A DNA stretch of 64,000 nucleotides, from NCBI GenBank assembly GCA_964404065.1, contig CAYOIP010000001.1, positions 21,721-85,720 of the forward strand, written 5' to 3'. The position numbers and the translations under genes were made by a program. The stretch's first letter is position 1. Every line of letters starts with the position of its first letter. The notes under the pieces were generated by a model, which saw only the letters and a list, made by a program, of their open reading frames with translations, ran no database searches and was not told where the DNA came from. The DNA comes from an uncultured Candidatus Peribacteria bacterium (GTDB lineage Bacteria > Patescibacteriota > Gracilibacteria > BD1-5 > UBA6164). This document shows, piece after piece, positions 514-49,151 of this stretch.

Positions 514-3162
514 TTATTTTTTCAAAACTAATTTATCATTTTCAATACTCAAAAGTACATCATCTCATGATTTTAATTCATCTTTTAATATAAAGTTTGA
601 AAGTTCATTTAAAACTATGTTTGTAATAGCTCTTTTCATAGGACGTGCTCAAAATTCACTATCAAATCAAACTTTTATTAAGTATTCTTTTAATTCTTTT
701 GAAAAATCTATTTTTATATTTTTAGCTTCTAATATTTTACAAACGTCTTTTAGTAATATTTCAACTATTTCTAAAATCATTTCGTGATTTATAGGATTGA
801 AAACTATTATATCATCTATTCTATTTAAAAATTCTGGTCTGAAATAATTCTTTAACTCTCATAACATTTCTTTATTTATTTCATCTTCTGATTTTTTTTC
901 TTCTATGAGAGAAGCAATTTTTTTACTTCAAATATTAGATGTTAAAATAATTATAGCATTTTTAAAATTAACAGTTCTTCATTTACTATCAGTTAATCTA
1001 CCATCATCAAGAACTTGTAAAAGTACATTAAATACATCAGGGTGAGCTTTTTCAACTTCATCAAAGAGAATTACGCTATATGGTTTTCTTCTAACAGCCT
1101 CAGTTAATTGTCCTCATTCTTCATATCAAACATATCCAGGAGGTGCTCCTATAAGTCTTTGAACAGAGAATTTTTCCATATATTCGCTCATATCAATTCT
1201 GATAAAAGCATCTTTAGAATCAAATAAATTTAGAGCTAGTGCTTTTGCAGTTTCAGTTTTACCAACTCAAGTAGGACCAAGAAATAAAAAGCTTCAAAGA
1301 GGTTTGTGTTCATCATTTAGTCAAGCTTTTGCTCTTTTAATAGCATTTGCAACTGCAAAAATGGCTTTATCTTGTCATACAACCGATTTTTTCAAATACT
1401 CTTCTAAATGCAATATTTTATCTTTTTCGCTTTGAACAAGTTTTGAAACAGGAATAGATGTCCATTTTGAAATTATTTCTGCAATATCCTCATCAGTTAC
1501 TTTATCTCTTAAATAAGATTTTCCTGAGTTTTTTATTTCTTCAAGTTTATTATCAATTTCAGAAATTTCTTTTTCTAGAGCAGGGATTTCAGAATAACTT
1601 ATTTTAGCTACTTCTTGGTAATTTGCTTCTCTTTCAAAAGTTTTTGCTTTTATTTTTAATTCTTCAATTTTTTCTCTTAACTGCTTTGATGCAACAATTA
1701 AATCTTTTTCTTTTTTCCAAGATATTTCTAAAGATTTATATTCTTCTTTTTTGGAAGCTATTTCGTGAGATAGTTTTTCTAATCCCCCCTCTAACTCCCC
1801 CCTAGCAGGGGGAGGAGGATTTTGGATTTTCCCCTCCTGCAAGGGAGGGGTTAGGGGAGGGGTATTTTCTGACTTCTTCGCCTCCAACTCTATCTCCAAA
1901 TTCCTTATTTTTTTCTCTAAAATATCAAGTTCAACAGGTTTTGAAATAGTTTTTAATTTTACTGAAGATAATGCTTCGTCAATCAGATCAATGGCTTTAT
2001 CAGGAAGTTTTCTATCAGTAATATATTTTATACTTAATTCAACTGCTGAAATTATAGCATTATCAGTTATTTTTATTCAGTGATGAGTTTCGTATTTATC
2101 TTTTATTCATCTAAGTATAGCTAGCGCATCTTCTCTTGAAGGTTCATCAACTAATACTTGTGCAAATCTTCTTTCTAAAGCTGGATCTTTTTCAATATAT
2201 TTTCTATATTCATTTATAGTTGTAGCTCAAATCAAATGCAAAGCTCATCTAGCTAAACTTGGTTTCAAAAGATTTCAAGCATCGGCTTGTCATTCCTGAT
2301 TTCAAGCTCAAACTATAGTATGAATTTCATCAATAAAAAGTATTATATTTCAGTTAGATTTTTCAACTTCTTTGATAACTGCTTTTAGTCTTTCTTCAAA
2401 TTCTCATCTATACTTTGCTCATGCAAGCAAAGCTCACATATCAAGAGTTATAATTCTTTTTCAAAGTAAATTTTCTGGAACTTCACGCTCAACTATTTTT
2501 CTAGCAATTCACTCAATAATTGCTGTTTTTCAAACTCAAGGGTCTCAAACTAAAACTGGATTATTTTTTGTCCTACGAGATAGTATTTGAATAGTACGTC
2601 TAATTTCTTCTTCTCTTCAGATTACTGGATCTATTTTTCCATTTCTTGCTTGCTCCACCAAATCTATTCAATATTTTTTCAGAGCATTTAGTTTATTTTC
2701 TGCGTCATTTGAAGTTACTTTTTCTCAATTTCTAAACTTTTCAATAACTTTTAAAATATCATCATATTTTATATTTAGAGTAGAGAATATGTTTTTTATT
2801 TTTTCGCTTCAAGATTTTAAAATTGCTAAAATAAGATGTTCTTCTGTTATAAATTCGTCTTTGTTTTTTCAAGCAATATTTTCAGCTTCTCTTAAAATGT
2901 CATTTAGAGGGTAAGAAATCCTCAAATCATAATGTCATTCAATTTTTGGGAAATTATCAATTTCTTTTTTAATACTTGATTTTAAAATCATTAAATCGGC
3001 TCCTAAATCAAGAAGTATTTCTTTTACAATGCTATCACTAGATTCAAGCATAGAGTAAAGTAAATGAAAATCAGTGATTTCAGGATTTTTTAAATTATTT
3101 GCAAGATTTTGGGCTTCTGCAATCCTAGAACTTGCATTTATGGTAAATTTTTCGATGTTCAT
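514..3162 (-). CDS. clpB: ClpB disaggregase (AAA+ chaperone), 882 aa, with a repeat-derived insert in the middle domain
   Basis: N-terminus [18 protein letters not shown].... NBD1 Walker A VGDPGVGKTA at ~2521-2550 has three Gly encoded by TGA. NBD2 FLGPTGVGKTE. C-terminus [15 protein letters not shown] then TAA. Standard-code fragments 1375-1899 and 2935-3162 are in the same frame. Confidence 0.95.
1784..1862. repeat. GC-rich palindromic element, double-arm copy A, inside the clpB CDS in frame
   Basis: cccccctctaactcccccctagcagggggagg-aggattttggatttt-cccctcctgcaagggaggggttaggggagggg. Two inverted units, each with its own hairpin. Read in frame as [32 protein letters not shown] (visible in ORF-track entry 1375..1899). 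Confidence 0.9.
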
Positions 3163-7069: not shown

Positions 7070-8494
7070 TTACAATTTATACTCAATTTTTTCTCAAATT
7101 CAAATATTTCCAGAAATTACATTTGATGATTTTATATAATCAAGTTCATCTATTTCTGGAGCATGGCTTTCTGGTATAACGGAAAGTTTATTTTTTGAGA
7201 TTTCGTGAATATATCAAGTTTGAATTTTTCAAACTCTTTGCTCATATTTTTTATCATAAATTTCTTCTAGGATTTCTCTCATTTCATAAACTCTTTGCTC
7301 AATAATTTTGTCATCAACTTTATTACCAAGTTTTGAAGAAGTTGCTAAAGGTTCATCATGATAACCAAAAAGAGAAACACTATCAAATTCATATTTTCTT
7401 GCAAAATTTTTTAGCATTTCAAAATCTTTTTCATCTTCCCCGGGGAACCCAACTATAAAGTTTGTATGAAGAAAAACATTTTTAAAATTTGCTTTTATGA
7501 AATCTAAAACTTTATAAATATGACTTTCATCGTAAAATCTTCACATAAGTTTTAAAACTTTTGGAGAAATATGTTGAAATGGAAGATCAAAATATGGAAT
7601 CATTTTTTTCAGTTTTGCAAGTCTTTCTAGATGAGAAAAAGTCAAGATATCGGGATACATATAGTAAATTCTATATTTAAAATCTCATGGAACTTTATCA
7701 ATTTCTTCAAGTAAATCTACAAGTTTAGATTCTCAGTAGATATCTGTTCAATATCTTGTTAAATCTTGAGCAATAATTTGAATTTCTTTAATTCCAGAAG
7801 AAATCATCGTTTTCACTTCAGTGAGTATATCTTCGATACTTCTTGATTTTTGTCTTCATCTGATGTTTGGAATTATACAAAAAGTACAATTATTATCACA
7901 TCATTCAGATATTTTTAGATATTCATATCCAAAATCAGCATTTAGGTAAGCTCTTACATCATCAGATTGCCAAATAAATGCTTTTGATGAAATATTGTCA
8001 CCTCAGATATTTTTTAAATAGTTTTTTAATTTTTCTGTTTTTAAGCTTATAATATTTTGATTTAGCTTTCTAAATCCCCCAACCTCCGCTACGCTTTGGT
8101 TTTCCCCCTTTACAAAAGGGGGAAGCGAAGTATGAGCAGGGGGATTTTTCATCCAATCAAGATTTTTACTTTCATTATGAGGAATAACAGCATAAAGATT
8201 TTTAAGGCTTGATAAAAATTCGTCATCTTTTACTTCTGTATAACATCACATAACAATAATTTTCTTTCATTTATCGTCATATTCTTTTATAAGATTTTCA
8301 GCTTCTTTTCTAGAACTAGATAAAAATCAGCAAGTATTTATTATCAAATACTCAACTTCTTTTTCGTCTGGATCAGTAAAAAACTCTATATCAACTTCTG
8401 AAGATAAATTAAAAATATTTCAAACCATAAATTCTAAATCAACTAAATTTTTAGAACATCCAAGGTTTATAGTGGAAAAATAAAATGTTTTCAT
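7070..8494 (-). CDS. rimO: ribosomal protein S12 methylthiotransferase RimO (radical SAM) with a repeat-derived insert
   Basis: MKTFYFSTINLGCSKNLVDLEFM; NTCGF; radical-SAM ISEGCDNNCTFCIIP; C-terminal TRAM-like end. Fragment 7229-7417 is in the same frame. 474 aa. Confidence 0.85.
8072..8147. repeat. GC-rich nested palindrome (divergent variant, copy B) inside the rimO CDS in frame
   Basis: aaatccccc...cgctt..ttttcccccttt-ac-aaaagggggaa-gcg...gggggattt. Outer 9-bp and inner 10-bp inverted repeats. Translated as NPPAHTSLPPFVKGENQSVAEVGGF. Confidence 0.8.
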
Positions 8495-13817: not shown

Positions 13818-13841
13818 AATTTCAAGTTATCATTTAAATTT

Positions 13842-13879
13842 CCCCTCTACCTCAAGGGAGAGGGGTTAGGGGTGAGGGC
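13842..13879. repeat. GC-rich palindromic element, single-unit copy C
   Basis: cccctctacctcaagggagaggggttaggggtgagggc. Its terminal ...GGGCTATAT supplies the TAG stop of the upstream gene. Flanked by TTAAATT on both sides. Confidence 0.85.
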
Positions 13880-14615: not shown

Positions 14616-14686
14616 CCCCCCACCTAGCATCCCCCTGGCAGGGGAGGAATTTTCCCCTCTTGCTAGGGAGGGGTTAGGGGAGGGGC
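14616..14686. repeat. GC-rich palindromic element, double-arm copy D
   Basis: ccccccacctagcatccccctggcaggggagg-aatttt-cccctcttgctagggaggggttaggggaggggc. It supplies the TAG stop of the PrgI-like gene. Confidence 0.9.
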
Positions 14687-24584: not shown

Positions 24585-24664
24585 CCCCCCACCTAGCCTC
24601 CCTCGCAAGCTGGGGAAGAACTAAAAAACCCCTCCCGGCTTGCGAGAGGGGGTAGGGGAGGGGC
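24585..24664. repeat. GC-rich palindromic element, double-arm copy E, in the nrdA-nrdB spacer
   Basis: ccccccacctagcctccctcgcaagctggggaag-aactaaaaaa-cccctcccggcttgcgagagggggtaggggaggggc. Confidence 0.9.
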
Positions 24665-27250: not shown

Positions 27251-28822
27251 ATGAAAAATTTTTTAATATCATTAATATCTGTATTACTTATAACTTGATA
27301 TGCAAGCGCTGCTTCAAATAGTTTATTTGAACAAATTTTTGATGGAACTAGTACTATTGATATTCCATCTGTTGTTAATAAACCATCAAGTATTTCAAGT
27401 TATAGTGTAAAAGTTATTGATGCTAATTTTGAGCAAATCAAAAATAGTTTAGTTAAATATTCTATTTCTAAAAGAATAGATATATATGATACTGCTATTG
27501 TAAAACTTCAAAAATTAGCAAATTCAAGAACTGTTAAATCAGAAAAAGATGCTTTAAATTACCTTAAAGGGTTAGCAAAAAAAGAAAAAGAATCTTTAGA
27601 AAAAGATACTTGATTGCTTATAGATTTATTTTGAGCTGATACAAGCATTTGTAATACTGATTATATTTTACAAGACTGAGATTGTGTAAAAAAAGTTTCT
27701 AAAACATATTCTTACGATGATAGCCTACCAAATAAAAGTTGTTCAGTTAGCAATGGTTATGGAAAACAATATTGGTATTGAACTTATTGGTCAAGTTGTC
27801 AAGTAAAATGATGTAATAGTTGATATTATATCTCAAATAATAGATGTGTAAAATGAAGTTCTTCTTCTTCAAGATATTATTCTGATAATTGTTATAATGA
27901 TGATTGTTCTTTAAGAACTACTTCTTGTTCAGTATATCATTGAGATGGAAAACAAGTTCGGGACTGAACAAACTGGTCAAAATGTTACGTAACTTCATGT
28001 GATAGTTGATATTATTTATCAGGAAATAATTGTGTTAATAGGTATGATTATAGATATGATTATGGAAATTGTTATAATGATGATTGTTCTTTGAGAACTA
28101 CTTCTTGTTCAGTTTCACATTGAGATGGACAAAAAGTTTGGGATGGAAATTCTTGGTCAAAATGTTATGTAACTTCATGTGATAGTTGATATCGTCTTTC
28201 AAAAAATTCATGTGTAAGAGATAGTTATTATTATGATTACAATGGAGATTATTACTGTTATGATTGAAGATGTGATTATGAAGATAGTAGATATTGTTCA
28301 GTAAGCCATTGAAGTTGAAGACAGTATTATAACTGATATAATTGGACTATATGTAGAGTTACATCATGTGATAGTTGATATTATGTTTCATGAAATAGCT
28401 GTGCAAGAGGAAATTACTATTATAACAATGATTATTACTATTATGATGACTATTATTATAATCATGACAATAATTACTGTTATGATTGAAGATGTGACTA
28501 TGAAGATAGTAGATATTGTTCAGTAAGTAATTGAAGTGGAAGACAATTTTATAATGGAAATTCTTGGTCTATTTGTTATGTAAATTCTTGTAATAGTTGA
28601 TATTATGTATCAGGAAATAGTTGTGTAAAAGATTATAGTAATAATTGTAATGGTTCTTCAATGCACTACGAAAATGATTCATGTTATGAAAATAATAGAT
28701 CTTGTTATATAGCATATTGAGTTTGAGAAAGAACATGGAATTGATCAAATTGGTCAGATTGTAGAGTTGTATCTTGTAATAGTTGATATTATAGCACTTG
28801 ATATAGTTGTTTAAAAAATTAA
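27251..28822 (+). CDS. secreted Cys/Tyr-rich tandem-repeat protein (523 aa)
   Basis: Signal peptide MKNFLISLISVLLITGYASA. About 6 repeats of C-S-V-x-x-G-x-G-x-x-x-W/Y-x-G-x-x-W-S-x-C-x-V-x-S-C-D/N-S-G-Y-Y-x-S-G-N-x-C with Tyr-rich linkers. Every codon was checked. Confidence 0.75.
27890..28547 (+). repeat. near-identical intragenic tandem repeats (180-bp period at 27890/28070; 222-bp period at 28253/28475)
   Basis: tgttataatgatgattgttcttt[a/g]agaactacttcttgttcagt... occurs twice. tactgttatgattgaagatgtga[t/c]tatgaagatagtagatattgttcagtaag occurs twice. Confidence 0.85.
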
Positions 28823-28867: not shown

Positions 28868-28946
28868 TGGAGCGAGGGACCAGGTTTGAACTGGCACACC
28901 CAAGGGTTGAAGCCTTAGTACACTCACTCTTTTATGTTACCCTCGC
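28868..28946 (-). tRNA. tRNA-Gly with anticodon UCA (reads UGA), CCA encoded
   Basis: GCGAGGG-TA-ACAT-AAAAGAGTGA-GTGT-A-CTAAGG-CT[TCA]AC-CCTTGG-GTGT-GCCAG-TTCAAAC-CTGGT-CCCTCGC-T-CCA. Cloverleaf with a 7-bp acceptor, a short variable loop, and the Gly identity set G1:C72, C2:G71, G3:C70, U73. Confidence 0.85.
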
Positions 28947-35694: not shown

Positions 35695-35728
35695 CCCCCA
35701 CCTAACCTCCCCCTTATCAAGGGGAGGG
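35695..35728. repeat. GC-rich palindromic element, single-unit copy F, starting 1 nt after the recR stop
   Basis: cccccacctaacctcccccttatcaaggggaggg; hairpin CCTCCCC-ttatcaa-GGGGAGG. Confidence 0.85.
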
Positions 35729-39420: not shown

Positions 39421-41232
39421 TTATTTTTCTAATACTGCTTTTATTCTTCTAACTCATCTAGAACTGGCTTCTTCTTTTAAAATCTTAAATTTTCACATAA
39501 TTCCAGTATTTTCTACATGTGGTCATCCACAAAGTTCTCTTGAAAATATTTCTCAAGAAGGAGATTTAAATGTATAAACTTTTACGATATCAGGATATTT
39601 TTCCCAAAAACTTCATTCTACTCAGTTTTCTTTTGCAACATTTTTATCCATTTCTTCTAAAACAACTTCAGCTTGTGCTGAAATAGCTTGGTTTACATAA
39701 TCTTCTACTTCTTTCAATTGTTCAGGTGTAACTTTATCTTCATTTGTGAAATCAAATCTAAGTCTTTCAGCAGTTATATTTGATCCAGCTTGATGAACAT
39801 GATTTCATAGGACTTTTCTAAGTCATGCCAACATTAAGTGAGTAGCTGAGTGAAGAGCTGTTGTAGTTTCTGAGTGATCAGCTAATCCTCAAGCAAATTT
39901 TTGAGCAGCTCAAGCGCGTGATAATTCTTGATGTTTTTTAAAAGCTTCATTGAATCAATCAACATCAACTTTTAGTCATTTTTCTAAAGCTAACTCCTGA
40001 GTCATCTCAATTGGGAAACCAAAAGTTTGAAATAAATCAAAAGCTTCTTTTCAAGAAATTTCTGATTTATTCCCCTCTCCTTGCAGGAGAGGGGCTAGGG
40101 GTGAGGTTTTTTTATCAAACTCTCTCAATCATTTTTCTAATGTAGTTAAAAATTGTTTTTCTTCTCTATCAATCTCTTCTAAAATTATAGACTTTCTATC
40201 AAGTACATTTGTATAAATTGGTGAAAATTTTTCTATTACTTTGCTTGCAACTGGAGATAAAAATTGTCACTGAAATCCTAGTTTATATCATTGTCTGATA
40301 GCACGTCTTAAAAGTCTTCTTAAAATATATCATTGATCTACATTTGATGGAGTTACAGAGTCAGAAATCATTATAACAGAAGTTCTTAAGTGGTCTGCTA
40401 TTATTCTTACAGAATTTTTTGTATTTTCGTTATATTCAATATTTAAAGTTTTACATATAACTTCAATAATATCTGAAAAAATATCAGTTTCATAAACACT
40501 TGGAGCTCAAGTTAAAGTTCTTGTAATTCTTTCAAGTCACATTCATGTATCTACGTTTTGCATTGCTGCTTTATTAAAATTTTCATTTTCATCTTTAACA
40601 TATTCCATAAATACATTATTCCAGATTTCCATCCAGTTTTTATCATCATTTCAAACTGTGCTTTCTTTTGGTGGAAGTTCTTCTTTTCATACCCGATAAA
40701 ATATTTCAGTATCTGGTCAGCAAGGTCCTGTTGCTCCAGCTGGTCCCCACCAATTATCTTTTTTTCAAAGATAACTTATATTTGTAATTCCTAAACTTCT
40801 CCAAACATCAGCAGAAAAATCATCTTTTGGAGCATTCAAGTCTCACTCAAAAACTGTTACAGCTATTTTTTTAGGGTCAATTGCTAGCCAATCTTTTGAA
40901 GTTAAAAATTCATAAGACCATTTTATAGAATCTTCCTTGAAATAATCTCAAAGCGACCAATTTCCAAGCATTTCAAAAAATGTTAAGTGAGTATTATCTC
41001 AAACATCTTCTATATCTCAAGTTCTTATACATTTTTGATAATCAGCTAACCTTTTTCCAAGAGGGTGTTTTTCTCATAACAAATATGGAACCAAAGGTTG
41101 CATTCCGGCAGTATTAAATAAAACAGTTGGATCATTTTCAGGAACTACTGAAGCAGAAGGGATGATAGAATGATTTTTTGATAAGAAAAAATCAATATAT
41201 TTTTGTCTAATTTCATGACTTGTAATTTGCAT
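39421..41232 (-). CDS. alaS: alanine--tRNA ligase, short form (603 aa) with a repeat-derived insert
   Basis: The N-terminal two thirds was translated line by line. [27 protein letters not shown] (Trp=TGG and Gly=TGA in one motif), GPCGPDTEIFY, editing-domain HSATHLM and CGGPHV. Confidence 0.95.
40072..40106. repeat. GC-rich palindromic element, single-unit copy G, inside the alaS CDS in frame
   Basis: cccctctccttgcaggagaggggctaggggtgagg (24 of 35 nt are G/C by count). Translated as [12 protein letters not shown]. Confidence 0.9.
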
Positions 41233-43938: not shown

Positions 43939-45999
43939 ATGTCAGAACAAGAAAAAAAAGAGCAAACTTTAACTCAAGAAACTCAAATTAGGCAAGAATA
44001 TACTGAAGATGATTTAAGAGTTCTTCTTGTTGATTTATGAATGCTAGAAGAAAATTTATTTTCAAATAAAGATTGAATAGTTGATGGAAATAGTGGTGAT
44101 AGTGAAATAGATAAAAAATATAAAGAATGATTAAAGAAAGCAAAAGATATTAAAACAAAAATAGAATTAGTTCAAAGACTTTATTGAGAATTTAGTAGAG
44201 ATAGTTATATAAAAACAACTATTTCATCTCATTTAGATTCAAAAAAAGATTATTTAGATGATGAAGATAGGGATAATATATATAAAATTCAAGAAGAAAC
44301 ACAAAAGATATTAAATGATTATCCAGAATATAAAGAAGTTATAGTTAATCATATAGAATCTAATTTTGATAAATTAAATTATATTGTTTCTAATTACCAA
44401 AAAAATTGAATTGATAAAAAAATCATATCTAATTATTTAAAGATAGATTATAAATTAACTTTAAATGAATGATTTAATAGATTGAGAATAATATTAGAAC
44501 ACATAAATAAGTCAGAAAAAATCATTGATAAAAAAAACATTGTAGATAATTTTCTAAATATAACAAAAAGTGTTTCAGTTGATTTTAGTTGAATGTCTGA
44601 AATAGAAAAAAATAATGACCCATATTGACTTAAAAAATTAGATAAAATATATAATTTTGATTTTACAAATAAGTCACAAGAATTAGATATATATAATTTA
44701 TTAAAAATTTGAATTAAAGATTTAGAATATATAAACAAACTTTACAAAGAAAATAATAAACAAGAATTAATAAGTTTTATAGATAATTTAGAAAATAAAA
44801 ATGATTTGTTAAAAATTGAAAGTATCAAAAAAATTTATTTAGAAGAAAGAAAAAATGAATATGATATAAAAGATTTAGATTTTTGAAGATTAGATGATGT
44901 TTTATTAAAAATAGAAAAAATAAAAGATTTAAAAACAAAAGAAAAAATTATTAATTTACTTAAGGAGTTCAAAAATGGGGGAATTAATGTAGGAAATAAA
45001 GAACAAAAAGAAAAAGAATTAAATGAAATATTTTCTTCTGCATTAAAAGACATTTCTAAAAATATAAATGATGATGATAAAATAAATGACAATCATTATG
45101 AATTAAGTATTCTACACTCTATTGCAATAACTTTTTCAACAGATTTTACTCTTGAGCAAATAGAAAAATTACAAGAAAATATTTGAAAAAATGTAAATAT
45201 AAGATTATTAAAACTAGAAGAAAAATTAAGTAATCCAAATGATTTATATAGGTATAAAAAATGATTGGCATCTTTAAGAGAAAATGACAATTCACCAGAA
45301 AACACTCAGTTAAAATTAGATTATTATAATAGTTTTTCTTTATGAAAAAATACTTATTCTCAAGGTATAAGATGAAAAGCTGAAGAAGAAAAAAAACAAC
45401 CAAAAATTACTGAATCAAAAAAAGCACAAATTCAATATCATTACCAAAAACTTTGATTAAAAGTTCAAGTTTGAAATAATTGAGAAATATTATGAAAATA
45501 TTGAGAGAAAAGTTTTTCTCAAAAACTTCAAGGTTGAAAAATAGAAGTTTGAGCCGATGAGAAAATGATTTACACAACATCACTTTGATACAAATTTGAA
45601 TTTGAGAATAGTGAATTTTGAGCTATGAAAGTAGTTGAAATAACTCAAAGATTTGATTATTTAAACAAAATCTGACTTGGATATTTTGGTGAAAATTTCA
45701 AGAAAATGATGGATTGTATTCCAAGTTTTCTTCCTAATCAAGCATTAAGATTAAATATAGACGAAAAGACTTGAGATTTTTTAGATCAAGTTGAATTAGG
45801 TAAAATTTTAGAAATATTTATAAATATTTGATTTCTTGAAAATATAAATTTTAGTCAAAATATATCAAATATTCAGGAGGTTACTGATGGACAGATGATG
45901 TATAGAGTTTGAAATCTAGAAAATTGAAGTGCATTTATTGATTGAAAATTTGATATAAAATTATTTTGAGAATTATTACAAGAAAAAAATAAAGTCTAA
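43939..45999 (+). CDS. hypothetical K/E/N-rich protein (686 aa)
   Basis: Every codon was checked and is open under code 25. Starts 9 nt after the upstream stop. Confidence 0.6.
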
Positions 46000-46018
46000 A
46001 ATTTAGACTTTATTTGTT
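45988..46018. terminator. hairpin at convergent gene ends
   Basis: aaagtctaaa-a-tttagacttt. It overlaps both stop codons (45997-45999 on + and 45996-45998 on -). Confidence 0.5.
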
Positions 46019-46940
46019 TAAGTAATTTAAATAATTTATATAAAAATTTATTATTTATCCAAATATAACTATCACTTACTTTTTTTATATCTGGAGTAAA
46101 TTTTAGTTTAAAATCAGTTACTCAAGCAAGTGGTGAATTTTTATCTTCAGGGCTTGCTATTCATAAAAAATCATAATACTTAGATCAAATTTCTTTGGCT
46201 TTCTTTATAGCGTACCATTGCATACTATACGGAGCCATTAAGTTTCTAAATTCTTTTAGAGAAGTAGAAGCTCAATAATAATAAATAGAAATTTCTTTAT
46301 TAAAAATAAATATTCAAGCAGAAAGTATTTTGTCTCAAATTTTTGTAAAAATAAGAGAACTTTCAGGGATAATTTCTAAAAAATTTTTATAATATTCTAA
46401 ACTATTTCAAGAAAATCAGTCTCTTGAAGTTGTTTCTAAAATTAGCGAGTAAAATATTTTTATATTTTCTAGAGTTTTTTCTACTTCAAAAACTTCAACT
46501 CATTTTTTAGTTGCAAGTCAGATATTATATCTTCACTTTGGTTTCATTTCTGATAAAATTTCTTCTTCAGATTTTTTTAAATCAATAAGAGCTGTATAGG
46601 GAGTAATGAATTTTTTATAGTGTCAAGGTTTTAGCCCCCCCTCTAACTCCCCCCTAGCAGGGGGAGAAATAGGACTTTCCTCCCCTGCCAGGGGGAGGTT
46701 AGGTGGGGGGATTTTAAAACTCTCAACTTGCACAAATAAACAACTTTGCAATTTACAAAGTTTAATTAATTCCTCAAAATTAACTTTTTCTAAATCTTCT
46801 ATTCATAAAGCAAAAAGTCAGTATTTTCAAAATCAAATACTTCTTTTTTCTACTAATATTTCATCAACCTCAAAAACATCACTTGCTTGATGTGATTTTA
46901 ATAGTAATTTTTTCCAATTATTTGATTGCCAAATAGACAT
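45996..46940 (-). CDS. FemAB-family peptidoglycan bridge-forming aminoacyl transferase (FemX/MurM-like) with a repeat-derived insert
   Basis: 314 aa. MSIWQSNNWKKLL, MKPKGRYNIGLATKKGVEV, GVTDFKLKFTP. Insert [30 protein letters not shown]. Confidence 0.7.
46635..46710. repeat. GC-rich palindromic element, double-arm copy H, inside the FemAB-like CDS in frame
   Basis: ccccccctctaactcccccctagcagggggag-aaataggactttcc-tcccctgccagggggaggttaggtgggggg. The left arm shares 31 identical nt with copy A. Confidence 0.9.
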
Positions 46941-46944
46941 AGTT

Positions 46945-47955
46945 TTAGTTTTTATGTAAATGTTTAATTGCATTCTCTGTGATTTTTCTTCCACGAGATG
47001 ATTTTTCTATAAATCAGATTTGAAGTAAATATGGTTCAACCACATCTTCAAGAGTTGCTTCTTCTTCTCAAATACTTGATGCGAGTGTTCCAAGTCCTAC
47101 AGGACCTCACGAAAATTTTAAATTTATTGTATCAAGATATTTTTTATCTAAATAATCAAGTCCAATCTCATCAATTCATAAATCTATAAAAATTTCTTTC
47201 CAAGTTTTTTGCTCATTTATATTGTGCCCTATAATTTTATAATCTCTAATAATTTTTAAAAGTCTATTTGAAATACGAGGAGTTCATCTACTTCTAGATG
47301 AAATTGCTTCAATTAAATCTTTTTGCATTTCTAGTTCTAGTATTGATGCATTTCTTACAAGAATTTTTGATAAATCACTTCCTGAATAAAAATCAAGTTT
47401 TAGAACATTTCCAAACCTATCTCTTAGAGGGCTAGATAATGCACTGAGTTTTGTAGTAGCTCATATTAAAGTAAAAGATTGAACTGGCATTCTAACACTT
47501 TGCGCTCAAGTTCATTTTCAAACAACAATATCTATAACAAAATCTTCCATTGCAGTATAAAGTATTTCTTCAATTTGTGGTTTTAAACGGTGAATTTCAT
47601 CTATAAAAAGTATGTCTCAGGCTTCAATATTTGATAATATACTAACAAGATCTGCTTGTTTTTCTATAGCAGGACCAGATGTGATCTTTAAATTGCTTCA
47701 CATCTCGCTTGCTATGATGTTTGATAAAGTAGTTTTTCATAGTCCCGGAGGTCAGTAAAAAAGAATATGCTCTAAAGCTGCATTTCTGAGTTTTGCTGAA
47801 GCGATTGAAACTCAAAGATGTTTTTTTATTTGTTCTTGTCCAACATATTCTCAAAGTGTTTTTGGTCTAAGAGAATTTTCATTTAGATCAATATCTTTTA
47901 CAGTAGTTTCAATAACTCTATCGGGTTTTTTAGTTTTTGATGAACTTAATGCCAT
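46945..47955 (-). CDS. ruvB: Holliday junction helicase RuvB
   Basis: [49 protein letters not shown]. 336 aa. Confidence 0.95.
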
Positions 47956-47979
47956 ATAAATATTTTAAAGGTTAATTTT

Positions 47980-48070
47980 CCCTCACCCCAACCCTCTCCT
48001 TTGAAGGAGAGGGAGTAGAAGGATTTTTTATCCCCCTCTACCCTCAAGGGAGAGGGGCTAGGGGTGAGGG
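47980..48070. repeat. GC-rich palindromic element, double-arm copy I
   Basis: ccctcaccccaaccctctcctttgaaggagaggg-agtagaaggattttttat-ccccctctaccctcaagggagaggggctaggggtgaggg. The right arm lies inside the 3' end of the methyltransferase CDS. Confidence 0.9.
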
Positions 48071-48616
48071 TTTTACTATCATAACTATTCCATCTTCAAT
48101 ATCAATAGGAATAATATTGTATGCAATTTTATTATCTTCTAAATACTCCCAAAATCAAATCATTTTTTCTCTAAATTTTATTACGTCATCTATAATTACA
48201 ATACCTCAAGGTAATACTTTATCCCAAACTAATTCTAAAAAATCTTTAGTTCTTCTTTTCATTCCATCAATAAATACAAAATCAAAAGTTTCATTTAAAG
48301 CTGGAATTATATCTAAAGCATTTCAATTTATAGCATTTATTGCATTTTCTACTCAAGCAGTTTTGAAATTTTCCAGCGCTTCTATATAAGATAATTTTGA
48401 AAACTCTATTGTTGTTAGTTTTCCTCAAATTTCTTTTAACTCTAAAGCAAAATTTATTGCACTATATCAATTTGCAGTTCATATTTCAAGCATATTTTTA
48501 GTTTTTGAGACTTTAATTAAATCTCTTAAAAATCTAGCATTTACTTCTGAAATATTTGGAATTTCGTTTTGTAATCAGTGTTTTTTTAGTTCTTTTAGAA
48601 ATACATCAACATTCAT
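48038..48616 (-). CDS. class I SAM-dependent O-methyltransferase (family-3-like) with a repeat-encoded C-terminal tail
   Basis: LEIGTANGYSAINFA, FDFVFIDGMK, GGIVIIDDV. Ends ...IVMIVKPSPLAPLPGG-TAG, with the last ~10 codons and the stop inside repeat copy I. Confidence 0.7.
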
Positions 48617-48695
48617 TTTTTTGGCTTTAATATTTAATATAATAAAATATAAAAATAAAAAATTATAAGTCAAGAATTAAATTTTCTAGAAAAAC

Positions 48696-48724
48696 TTGCT
48701 TTTTAGACACATTTTTATTATAAT
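48696..48724 (+). promoter_or_regulatory. candidate promoter TTGCTT-17-TATAAT
   Basis: cttgctttttagacacatttttattataatg, 34 nt upstream of ATG 48758. Confidence 0.4.
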
Positions 48725-48757
48725 GCCGGTGTTTTATTTATTTAATAAATTTTTATT

Positions 48758-49132
48758 ATGAATAATTTAGTAAAAAATTCGCTATATTCTTTCGTATGAG
48801 CTTTTTCAGCTTTACAATTTAGTATTTCAAGTGCTAATGGATGAGCTATGAATTTTAATCCAGGTTGAGTAAGATCATGAGTAAAATGAACAAATAATAC
48901 TGTTGATGTTGCTGCTCAAAATCTTATTAGTACTTTAGCAACATTTTTAACTATTGTTGCTGTAATTTACGCTTTATATGGATGATTTAATATATTAACT
49001 GCTTGAGGTGAAGAAGATAAAGTTAAAAAATGAAAAACTATTTTGATTCAAGCTCTTATTTGACTTGTAGTTATCTGGTTAGCTTACTCAATAGTAAGTT
49101 GGTTAATTACATTAGTATTACCTTCAGCTTAG
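48758..49132 (+). CDS. T4SS-pilin-like small protein (paralog of 13464-13817)
   Basis: 124 aa. Signal-like N-terminus, LATFLTIVAVIYALYGGFNILTAGGEEDKVKKGKTILIQALIGLVVIWLAYSIVSWLI. Confidence 0.5.
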
Positions 49133-49151
49133 TTTTACTAATTTGTTTTTT

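Follow-up and report, generated by a model that had tools for sequence, protein, structure and literature searches.

The FemX-like gene and its insert

A FemX/FemAB-family gene that carries a paired palindromic element was found on the minus strand within the window, i.e. the whole 64-kb stretch of DNA that was analysed. The features at this locus are as follows.

45996..46940, minus strand: FemX/FemAB-family gene, 314 aa (Pfam FemAB PF02388, 3.9e-33)
46635..46710, no strand assigned: paired palindromic element in the FemX-like gene, 76 nt, in frame on the minus strand
46636..46666, minus strand (G-rich strand): Fem unit 1, CTCCCCCT-GCTA-GGGGGGAG-TTA-GAGGGGGG; 31 nt identical to 1784-1814
46679..46709, plus strand (G-rich strand): Fem unit 2, CCTCCCCT-GCCA-GGGGGAGG-TTA-GGTGGGGG, from the triplex-rule finder

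The original prediction, which had placed an element at 46635-46710 of a FemAB-like gene in the same frame as one in clpB, was correct in sequence, frame and minus strand. Its second statement, that the insert interrupts a recognisable FemX-type transferase, was borne out, as the host gene has both the FemAB Pfam domain and the FemX fold: the best PDB match of its structure model was Weissella viridescens FemX (1NE9, TM 0.71), followed by S. aureus FemX and FemA. The AF2 model, made with 39 homologues on the Fem translation in which TGA was read as Trp (P0001), reached a mean pLDDT of 89.2. Upon translation from the minus strand, 46626-46715 gives a 30-residue Pro/Gly-rich insert, flanked by the conserved motifs FVQVEsF and YKKFITPYTA. 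Residues 81-97, located between the strands 69-74 and 103-105, are the sole segment with a pLDDT <50, and the insert is predicted to form a disordered surface loop. Folded as single-stranded RNA, the element gave one long hairpin of -63.6 kcal/mol (z = -6.4).

Genetic code and codon usage

The window has a GC content of 24.4%; ~92.6% of it (about 93%) is coding and 7.4% non-coding. Using table 11, 26 ORFs of >=100 aa were obtained, the longest with 233 aa, vs 96 ORFs with a maximum of 1517 aa using tables 4/25, in which TGA is a sense codon. Of the 48 glycines of ClpB, 35 are encoded by TGA, those of the Walker A motif VgDPgVgKT among them, and upon alignment with E. coli ClpB the TGA positions of VgDPgVgKT and DMgALLAgAKYRgEFEERLK stand opposite Gly. 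Over 43 window genes, TGA makes up 940/1227 Gly codons (77%). One tRNA gene was labelled 'SeC' by ARAGORN:

28868-28946, minus strand: tRNA, anticodon UCA

Its acceptor stem is GCGAGGG/CCCTCGC, followed by U73 and an encoded CCA, and it is probably a tRNA-Gly(UCA) reading TGA in code 25. The named close homologues of the Fem protein all belong to Candidatus Gracilibacteria. On this sequence evidence (ORF counts, TGA at conserved Gly positions, a tRNA with anticodon UCA and Gracilibacteria homologues), code 25 (TGA = Gly) is the correct one for the window. A suggested link between the use of aminoacyl-tRNA by FemAB enzymes and the reassigned Gly codon gained no support; the Gly codons of the element are GGG/GGA, not TGA.

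Outside the repeats, CCC, GGC, CGA and CGC are nearly absent from the 43 window genes, and the repeat inserts therefore concentrate the genome's rarest codons; the 108 element codons hold 11 of the 21 CCC and 11 of the 47 GGG codons. A separate ORF of ~520 aa (27251-28822, plus strand) contains 5-6 tandem coding repeats of ~186 nt each, which are 60-83% identical.

Further copies in the window

Copies were collected from GC islands and with an nhmmer profile, giving ~14 units over the 64 kb, which are arranged as 5 paired and 3-4 single copies. Beside the Fem copy, these are listed below.

1784..1861, no strand assigned: paired element in clpB (514-3162, minus strand), tip of the M-domain coiled coil
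8072..8143, no strand assigned: degenerate copy in a MiaB/RimO-like radical-SAM gene (7070-8494, minus strand), read as NPPAHTSLPPFVKGENQSVAEVGG
13841..13877, minus strand: intergenic single unit
14616..14685, no strand assigned: intergenic paired element
24585..24663, no strand assigned: intergenic paired element between two ribonucleotide-reductase-like genes
35695..35728, minus strand: intergenic single unit, directly 3' of a recR-like stop codon
40072..40106, plus strand: single unit in alaS (39421-41232, minus strand), 13 residues, replacing an equally long native segment
47981..48069, no strand assigned: paired element at the 3' end of an O-methyltransferase gene (48038-48616, minus strand)

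The unit pattern matched the window 4 times vs 0 times in 100 shuffles, and the triplex-rule finder 9 times vs 0 times in 20 shuffles. In 291 kb of other Gracilibacteria loci, ~8 units were found.

The exact 31-nt stretch CCCCCCTCTAACTCCCCCCTAGCAGGGGGAG is common to 1784-1814 (clpB) and 46636-46666 (Fem). Both genes lie on the minus strand and read this arm in one frame, which accounts for the same 11 residues in both proteins, just as the original prediction had it. The ClpB insert aligns to a gap opposite KESDE-A-S-KKRL of E. coli ClpB, at the tip of the M-domain coiled coil, and is absent from most homologues. The alaS unit lies in a variable stretch of AlaRS, where the native segment VNGFQIAFERTGQ is found in the closest syntenic relative (L121, gene order MTase-RuvB-Fem ... 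AlaRS ... RecR); the length difference of alaS from this orthologue is -3 nt. The copy at 47981-48069 abolishes the TAA of the methyltransferase gene and provides its last 10 residues, PSPLAPLPGG, and a TAG stop codon.

Five of the nine insertion events in the window fall into the 7.4% non-coding DNA, which fits strong selection against most genic insertions. The intergenic copies (13841-13877, 14616-14685, 24585-24663, 35695-35728 and 47981-48069) begin 0-20 nt past the upstream stop codon and nearly fill their short spacers, so that position is inseparable from function. As regards a possible role of the intergenic copies as terminators, no clear U-run was seen by eye 3' of the hairpins on the transcribed strand in the printed sequences, in which the spacers are short.

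Architecture and distribution of the repeat unit

The basic unit comprises ~32 nt and is composed of a C-rich stem, a loop of 4-7 nt, a G-rich stem, TTA/CTA and then another G-rich stem; a 31-nt example of the G-rich strand is CCTCCCCTGCCAGGGGGAGGTTAGGTGGGGG. Two inverted units make up palindromes of 76-97 nt, as in Fem and ClpB. For the triplex-rule finder, a pyrimidine-rich stem (Y-stem), a loop, a purine-rich stem (R-stem), a short loop and a third stem of G/A/T antiparallel to the purine stem were searched, with the triads G.G-C, A.A-T and T.A-T allowed and <=1 mismatch. With 8-nt stems, 8 window sites, the two arms of Fem and the two of ClpB among them, scored 7-8/8 for Watson-Crick pairs and 7-8/8 for triads; Fem unit 1 has 7/8 Watson-Crick pairs and 8/8 allowed triads. 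In all window units the second loop is a trinucleotide, TTA, CTA, GTA or TTG.

Among the matches listed, the same unit was present in more than 200 loci, which belong to Alphaproteobacteria, Cyanobacteria, Chloroflexi, Bacteroidota and Planctomycetota as well as to viral contigs; at least 87 viral contigs carry it. The matches listed for the unit pattern in GTDB genomes comprised Rhizobiales, Sphingomonads, Nostoc, Chloroflexus, Dehalococcoidia, Bacteroidota, Planctomycetota and others. A foreign unit of ~34 nt, CCCC[A/T]C[C/A]CC-TA[A/G]-CC[C/T]CTCCCC-loop-GGGGAG[G/A]GG, recurs in almost identical form in many phyla, and on IMG/VR contigs as well (L001-L208). In several Alphaproteobacteria the G-rich arm occupies a Shine-Dalgarno-like position (GGGGGAGAGGAACATGA). 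The ORF context of the foreign GC-rich loci was uninformative, spurious long ORFs being common at 60-70% GC.

In 209 distinct foreign units, a 9-nt 'tail' mirrors the C-rich arm of the hairpin, and the non-C positions covary strictly (tail5/stem5 194:0:2:13, p = 7e-19; tail7/stem3 61:1:1:146, p = 1e-50). This mirrored covariation of tail and stem equals the triad rule and thus points to a purine-motif intrastrand triplex architecture. It was also considered whether the G/C tracts might form a G-quadruplex or i-motif, but a triplex agrees better with the three-way covariation and with the conservation of the Watson-Crick partner stem. As judged from its sequence, the repeat is a unit of the BoxC/PIT/TM kind and a potential intrastrand purine-motif triplex, which may form in vivo.

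The strict TM_ECO consensus had 0 matches in the window and was found in 11 of the 297 loci compared, each of these 11 being a foreign (non-Gracilibacteria) locus from the scans of genomes and viral contigs; the window units are therefore variants of the class and not TM_ECO itself. No Rfam family reached the gathering score in the window and six foreign loci, with only sub-threshold matches to generic miRNA hairpins on the element, and the repeat is therefore not a described RNA family. A literature search with the literal element sequence returned nothing relevant, and the exact-arm pattern had 0 matches in the JGI metagenomes. When the 30-aa insert peptide was searched against 1.84 billion protein representatives, the sole match was a 161-aa 'protein' (P0241) in which the translation of the paired element is repeated four times in tandem; most probably this is a spurious ORF that overlies a tandem array of the repeat in another organism.

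Reading frames of the genic copies

The frame shared by Fem and clpB had been taken beforehand to suggest that only some frames and orientations are tolerated. Intact genes indeed contain stop-free readings only, but the same frame occurring twice says little. By six-frame translation, paired copies have exactly one stop-free frame per strand (ClpB +1/-2, Fem +1/-1), therefore the common frame was forced and the orientation alone was coincidental, with a prior of ~0.5. In single units, 4 of the 6 frames are open. A survey of 377 kb of code-25 loci upheld stop avoidance and gave no clear further restriction in what is a small sample; the ~15 intragenic events stem mostly from a few orthologous genes and are not independent. 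As to stop-containing frames, which had been named as the finding that would speak for pseudogenes, one case only was seen, the O-methyltransferase gene, whose C-terminus and stop codon are replaced by the copy.

A stronger form of the claim, in which the encoded peptide limits the tolerated frames or orientations beyond stop avoidance, is unlikely. It could draw on the genic units read on the G-rich strand, which show the xTA-in-frame phase (…GELEGG / GEGLGVR) in 4-5 cases and the Arg-rich phase in 0; these cases, however, are not independent, and the phase of paired copies is fixed by stops in the loop. On the C-rich strand, both open phases occur, with 3 and 3 independent cases, again a small sample.

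The insert might also be missing from the mature protein, by ribosome bypassing or removal from the mRNA, in the manner of the GC-rich 'byp' inserts of yeast mitochondria. The very stable mRNA hairpin (-63.6 kcal/mol) and the accumulation of the rarest codons would suit such a process. Yet all intact genic copies are in frame and free of TAA/TAG, genes with the element differ in length from their orthologues by a multiple of 3 (Fem, +45 nt; AlaRS, -3 nt), and the methyltransferase ORF ends at the element's own stop codon. As bypassing needs none of these properties, they count against it, and we regard it as very improbable. Translation of the insert, we infer, is almost certain.

Empty sites, hotspots and arm conservation in relatives

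The Fem, ClpB, AlaRS and MTase sites are empty or in different states in relatives. At the Fem site, L121 has a 14-aa AT-type loop, SVNKEINLELKILEY, the window gene being 45 nt longer, and neither the element nor a GC island was found across the syntenic 16 kb of L121. At the MTase/RuvB site, the flanks are ~100% identical between the window (filled) and L121 (empty). In L209, which was assembled independently, the Fem site is occupied by the same element as in the window.

The comparison of window positions 45300-49150 with L121 3100-6800 (Logan contig, SRR22388047) revealed a mosaic of identity: it amounts to ~100% in RuvB and over the 3' two-thirds of Fem, vs ~75% over the 5' 300 nt of this gene, in which the loop is included, and one identity break lies within ~15 nt of the Fem element. 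The mosaic could have arisen by recombination at the repeat, or it could, at least in part, be due to the Logan contig being chimeric.

Among 25 Gracilibacteria loci, the Fem loop normally has 13-17 aa (LNYDNxxxIxINxFKx); loops bearing an element have 22-38 aa, and position, orientation and subtype of the unit vary. In one locus (L232) the Fem loop is otherwise intact and has gained a single unit behind NYNN, while the Fem loop of P0011 contains a C-strand unit and that of P0007 a G-strand unit. The tip of the ClpB M domain shows the same varied occupancy (P0126, P0139, P0147, P0133). A second unit was seen in NBD2 of ClpB P0139 (SSPSPLAPLPKVEGENQ). Two units lie in the LeuRS of L213 (2966-2995 and 3380-3409); the length of LeuRS ranges from 889 to 1040 aa among close relatives.

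These patterns bear on a reading in which the loops of Fem (and ClpB) each received a single ancient insertion that descended vertically and then diverged, decayed or was lost, the hotspot being an artefact. The left boundary TTTT[A/G]AAAT|CCCCC, shared by the window, L209 and L211 despite differing subtypes, and the existence of degenerate versions (P0005, P0006, P0147) speak for it. On the other hand, position and orientation of the unit differ by lineage (L232, P0011, P0007), most Gracilibacteria have the AT-type loop of 13-17 aa, and the arms are 98% identical vs 78% for the flanks, which would not be expected from vertical decay in an AT-biased genome. We consider a single ancient event improbable; the sequence comparisons speak rather for a few permissive loops that were entered repeatedly.

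Between the window and L209, the elements are identical at 72/78 positions, vs 77-79% identity in the coding flanks of Fem. By hand count the arms are ~98% conserved, with ~1 difference in 68 arm positions and most differences in the spacer (binomial P ~1e-6). The flanks beside the element have diverged at the normal level, therefore the element is not part of a recently transferred patch. Because the arms are conserved beyond the flanks and the rarest codons are kept under AT pressure, the pattern calls for a constraint at the level of DNA, not of the peptide, i.e. selection on DNA or continual homogenisation.

Alternatively, the Pro/Gly-rich peptide itself might be selected as an adaptive surface loop, the DNA palindrome being secondary, and the repeated occupation of the same loops in two proteins could be taken in this sense. 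Against this, identical DNA units also occur between genes, synonymous positions are kept in the arms and not in the spacer, and different frames at the same site give unrelated peptides (GEGLGVRE vs SPLAPLLTWEG). The loop, moreover, is predicted to be disordered, and close relatives function without the insert. Selection for the peptide is thus hardly credible as the main cause.

Proposed origin and significance

With a probability of about 0.72, the Fem feature is an in-frame translated copy of a dispersed repeat of the BoxC/PIT/TM kind, which multiplied in the Gracilibacteria lineage and was filtered by selection. The repeat units have multiplied within one Gracilibacteria lineage and, as ~93% of the genome is coding, some copies land inside genes. 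Selection would then act as a filter on genic copies, so that the survivors would be those in surface loops which keep the frame and lack TAA/TAG, seen as Pro/Gly-rich disordered peptides. The 11-residue peptide common to Fem and ClpB results from the same unit subtype and the one open frame per strand.

No clean target-site duplication was found in the filled/empty comparisons, in which A-rich flanks blur short ones, and 9-56 nt of the target are replaced at filled sites. Terminal inverted repeats flanked by a target-site duplication, as in a MITE, were thus not found, nor was a mobilising gene within the 64-kb window. The copies may enter via recombination or template switching, or with the help of an enzyme by which single-stranded DNA in hairpin or triplex form is recognised; the replacement of the target and the lack of a target-site duplication fit such copy-in better than a cut-and-paste MITE.

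Tentatively, and at slightly less than even odds, the triplex-type repeats, which PMC4666352 describes as intergenic, may act in some Gracilibacteria as 'protein-coding palindromes', which re-enter the loops of FemX, ClpB, AlaRS and LeuRS with near-invariant arms. If so, one would have to assume that homogenisation or re-insertion is still going on, or that a non-B DNA structure is under selection within coding sequence, and a second, independent RPE-like phenomenon, carried by a cross-phylum element, would be at hand.

The repeat class is known and its setting is unreported: a literature search retrieved no report of triplex-type units that lie in frame within essential genes of a CPR bacterium using code 25. 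The case indicates that a non-B-DNA repeat can reside within essential genes of a minimal CPR genome. The inserts provide Gracilibacteria proteins with Pro/Gly-rich loops and GC islands of the rarest codons and coincide with identity breaks between strains; they therefore matter for annotation, protein alignment, phylogeny and assembly quality in Gracilibacteria. Orthologous filled and empty sites are material for studying how such repeats spread. The findings also join two literatures, one on triplex-forming BoxC/PIT/TM repeats in Proteobacteria and Cyanobacteria, the other on the in-frame 'selfish palindromes' of Rickettsia.

Comparison with known systems

The GC clusters of yeast mitochondria are GC-rich palindromic mobile islands in an AT-rich genome, occasionally located inside coding sequence. 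They are organellar and differ in sequence and structure from the present repeat, and serve as an analogy only.

REP/REPIN sequences, the mobilisation of which depends on RAYT transposases, share with the window units the occurrence of short palindromes, single or as inverted doublets with a long hairpin, as well as lineage-specific blooms without target-site duplications. The window units differ in having a third, mirror-related block and in that some copies are intragenic; by eye, no GTAG/CGTC head of the REP/REPIN type was visible in the printed unit sequences.

PIT / intrastrand-triplex motifs were reportedly treated by Hoyne and Maher in 2000, and to our knowledge no mobilising gene is known for the BoxC/PIT/TM family. 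Its consensus is 5'-CCCTCNCCC N3-6 GGGNGAGGG N3 GGGNGAGGG, with TTA as the second loop in type A (Holder et al. 2015, PMC4666352). BoxC/PIT/TM_ECO elements abound in Enterobacteria and Cyanobacteria, some of them in inverted pairs, and are tied to locus variability without a link to known mobile elements; for TM_ECO, a triplex was shown in vitro by CD, NMR and DMS footprinting, whereas no purine-motif triplexes form in RNA (PMC4666352). The window repeat agrees with this class in its frequent inverted pairs, very conserved sequence, patchy copy numbers among close relatives and variable loci. It differs in that its units miss the strict E. coli consensus and its host is a code-25 CPR bacterium with 24% GC. 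TM_ECO is, furthermore, 'always located intergenically' in E. coli MG1655 (PMC4666352), whereas the present copies in Fem, ClpB, AlaRS and the MiaB-like gene are located within ORFs.

An analogy to the RPEs of Rickettsia had been drawn in the original prediction, and it holds for the behaviour, with copies in frame at permissive sites, and not for the family, which is the different and known BoxC/PIT/intrastrand-triplex motif. RPEs measure ~100-150 bp and are Rickettsia-specific (Ogata et al. 2000, 2002, as cited in PMC10969869), whereas the present unit is of 32 nt, cross-phylum and triplex-type; the two were compared by description. In both systems, palindromic repeats of a reduced AT-rich genome are located between genes as well as in frame in unrelated housekeeping genes, at positions compatible with the protein fold.
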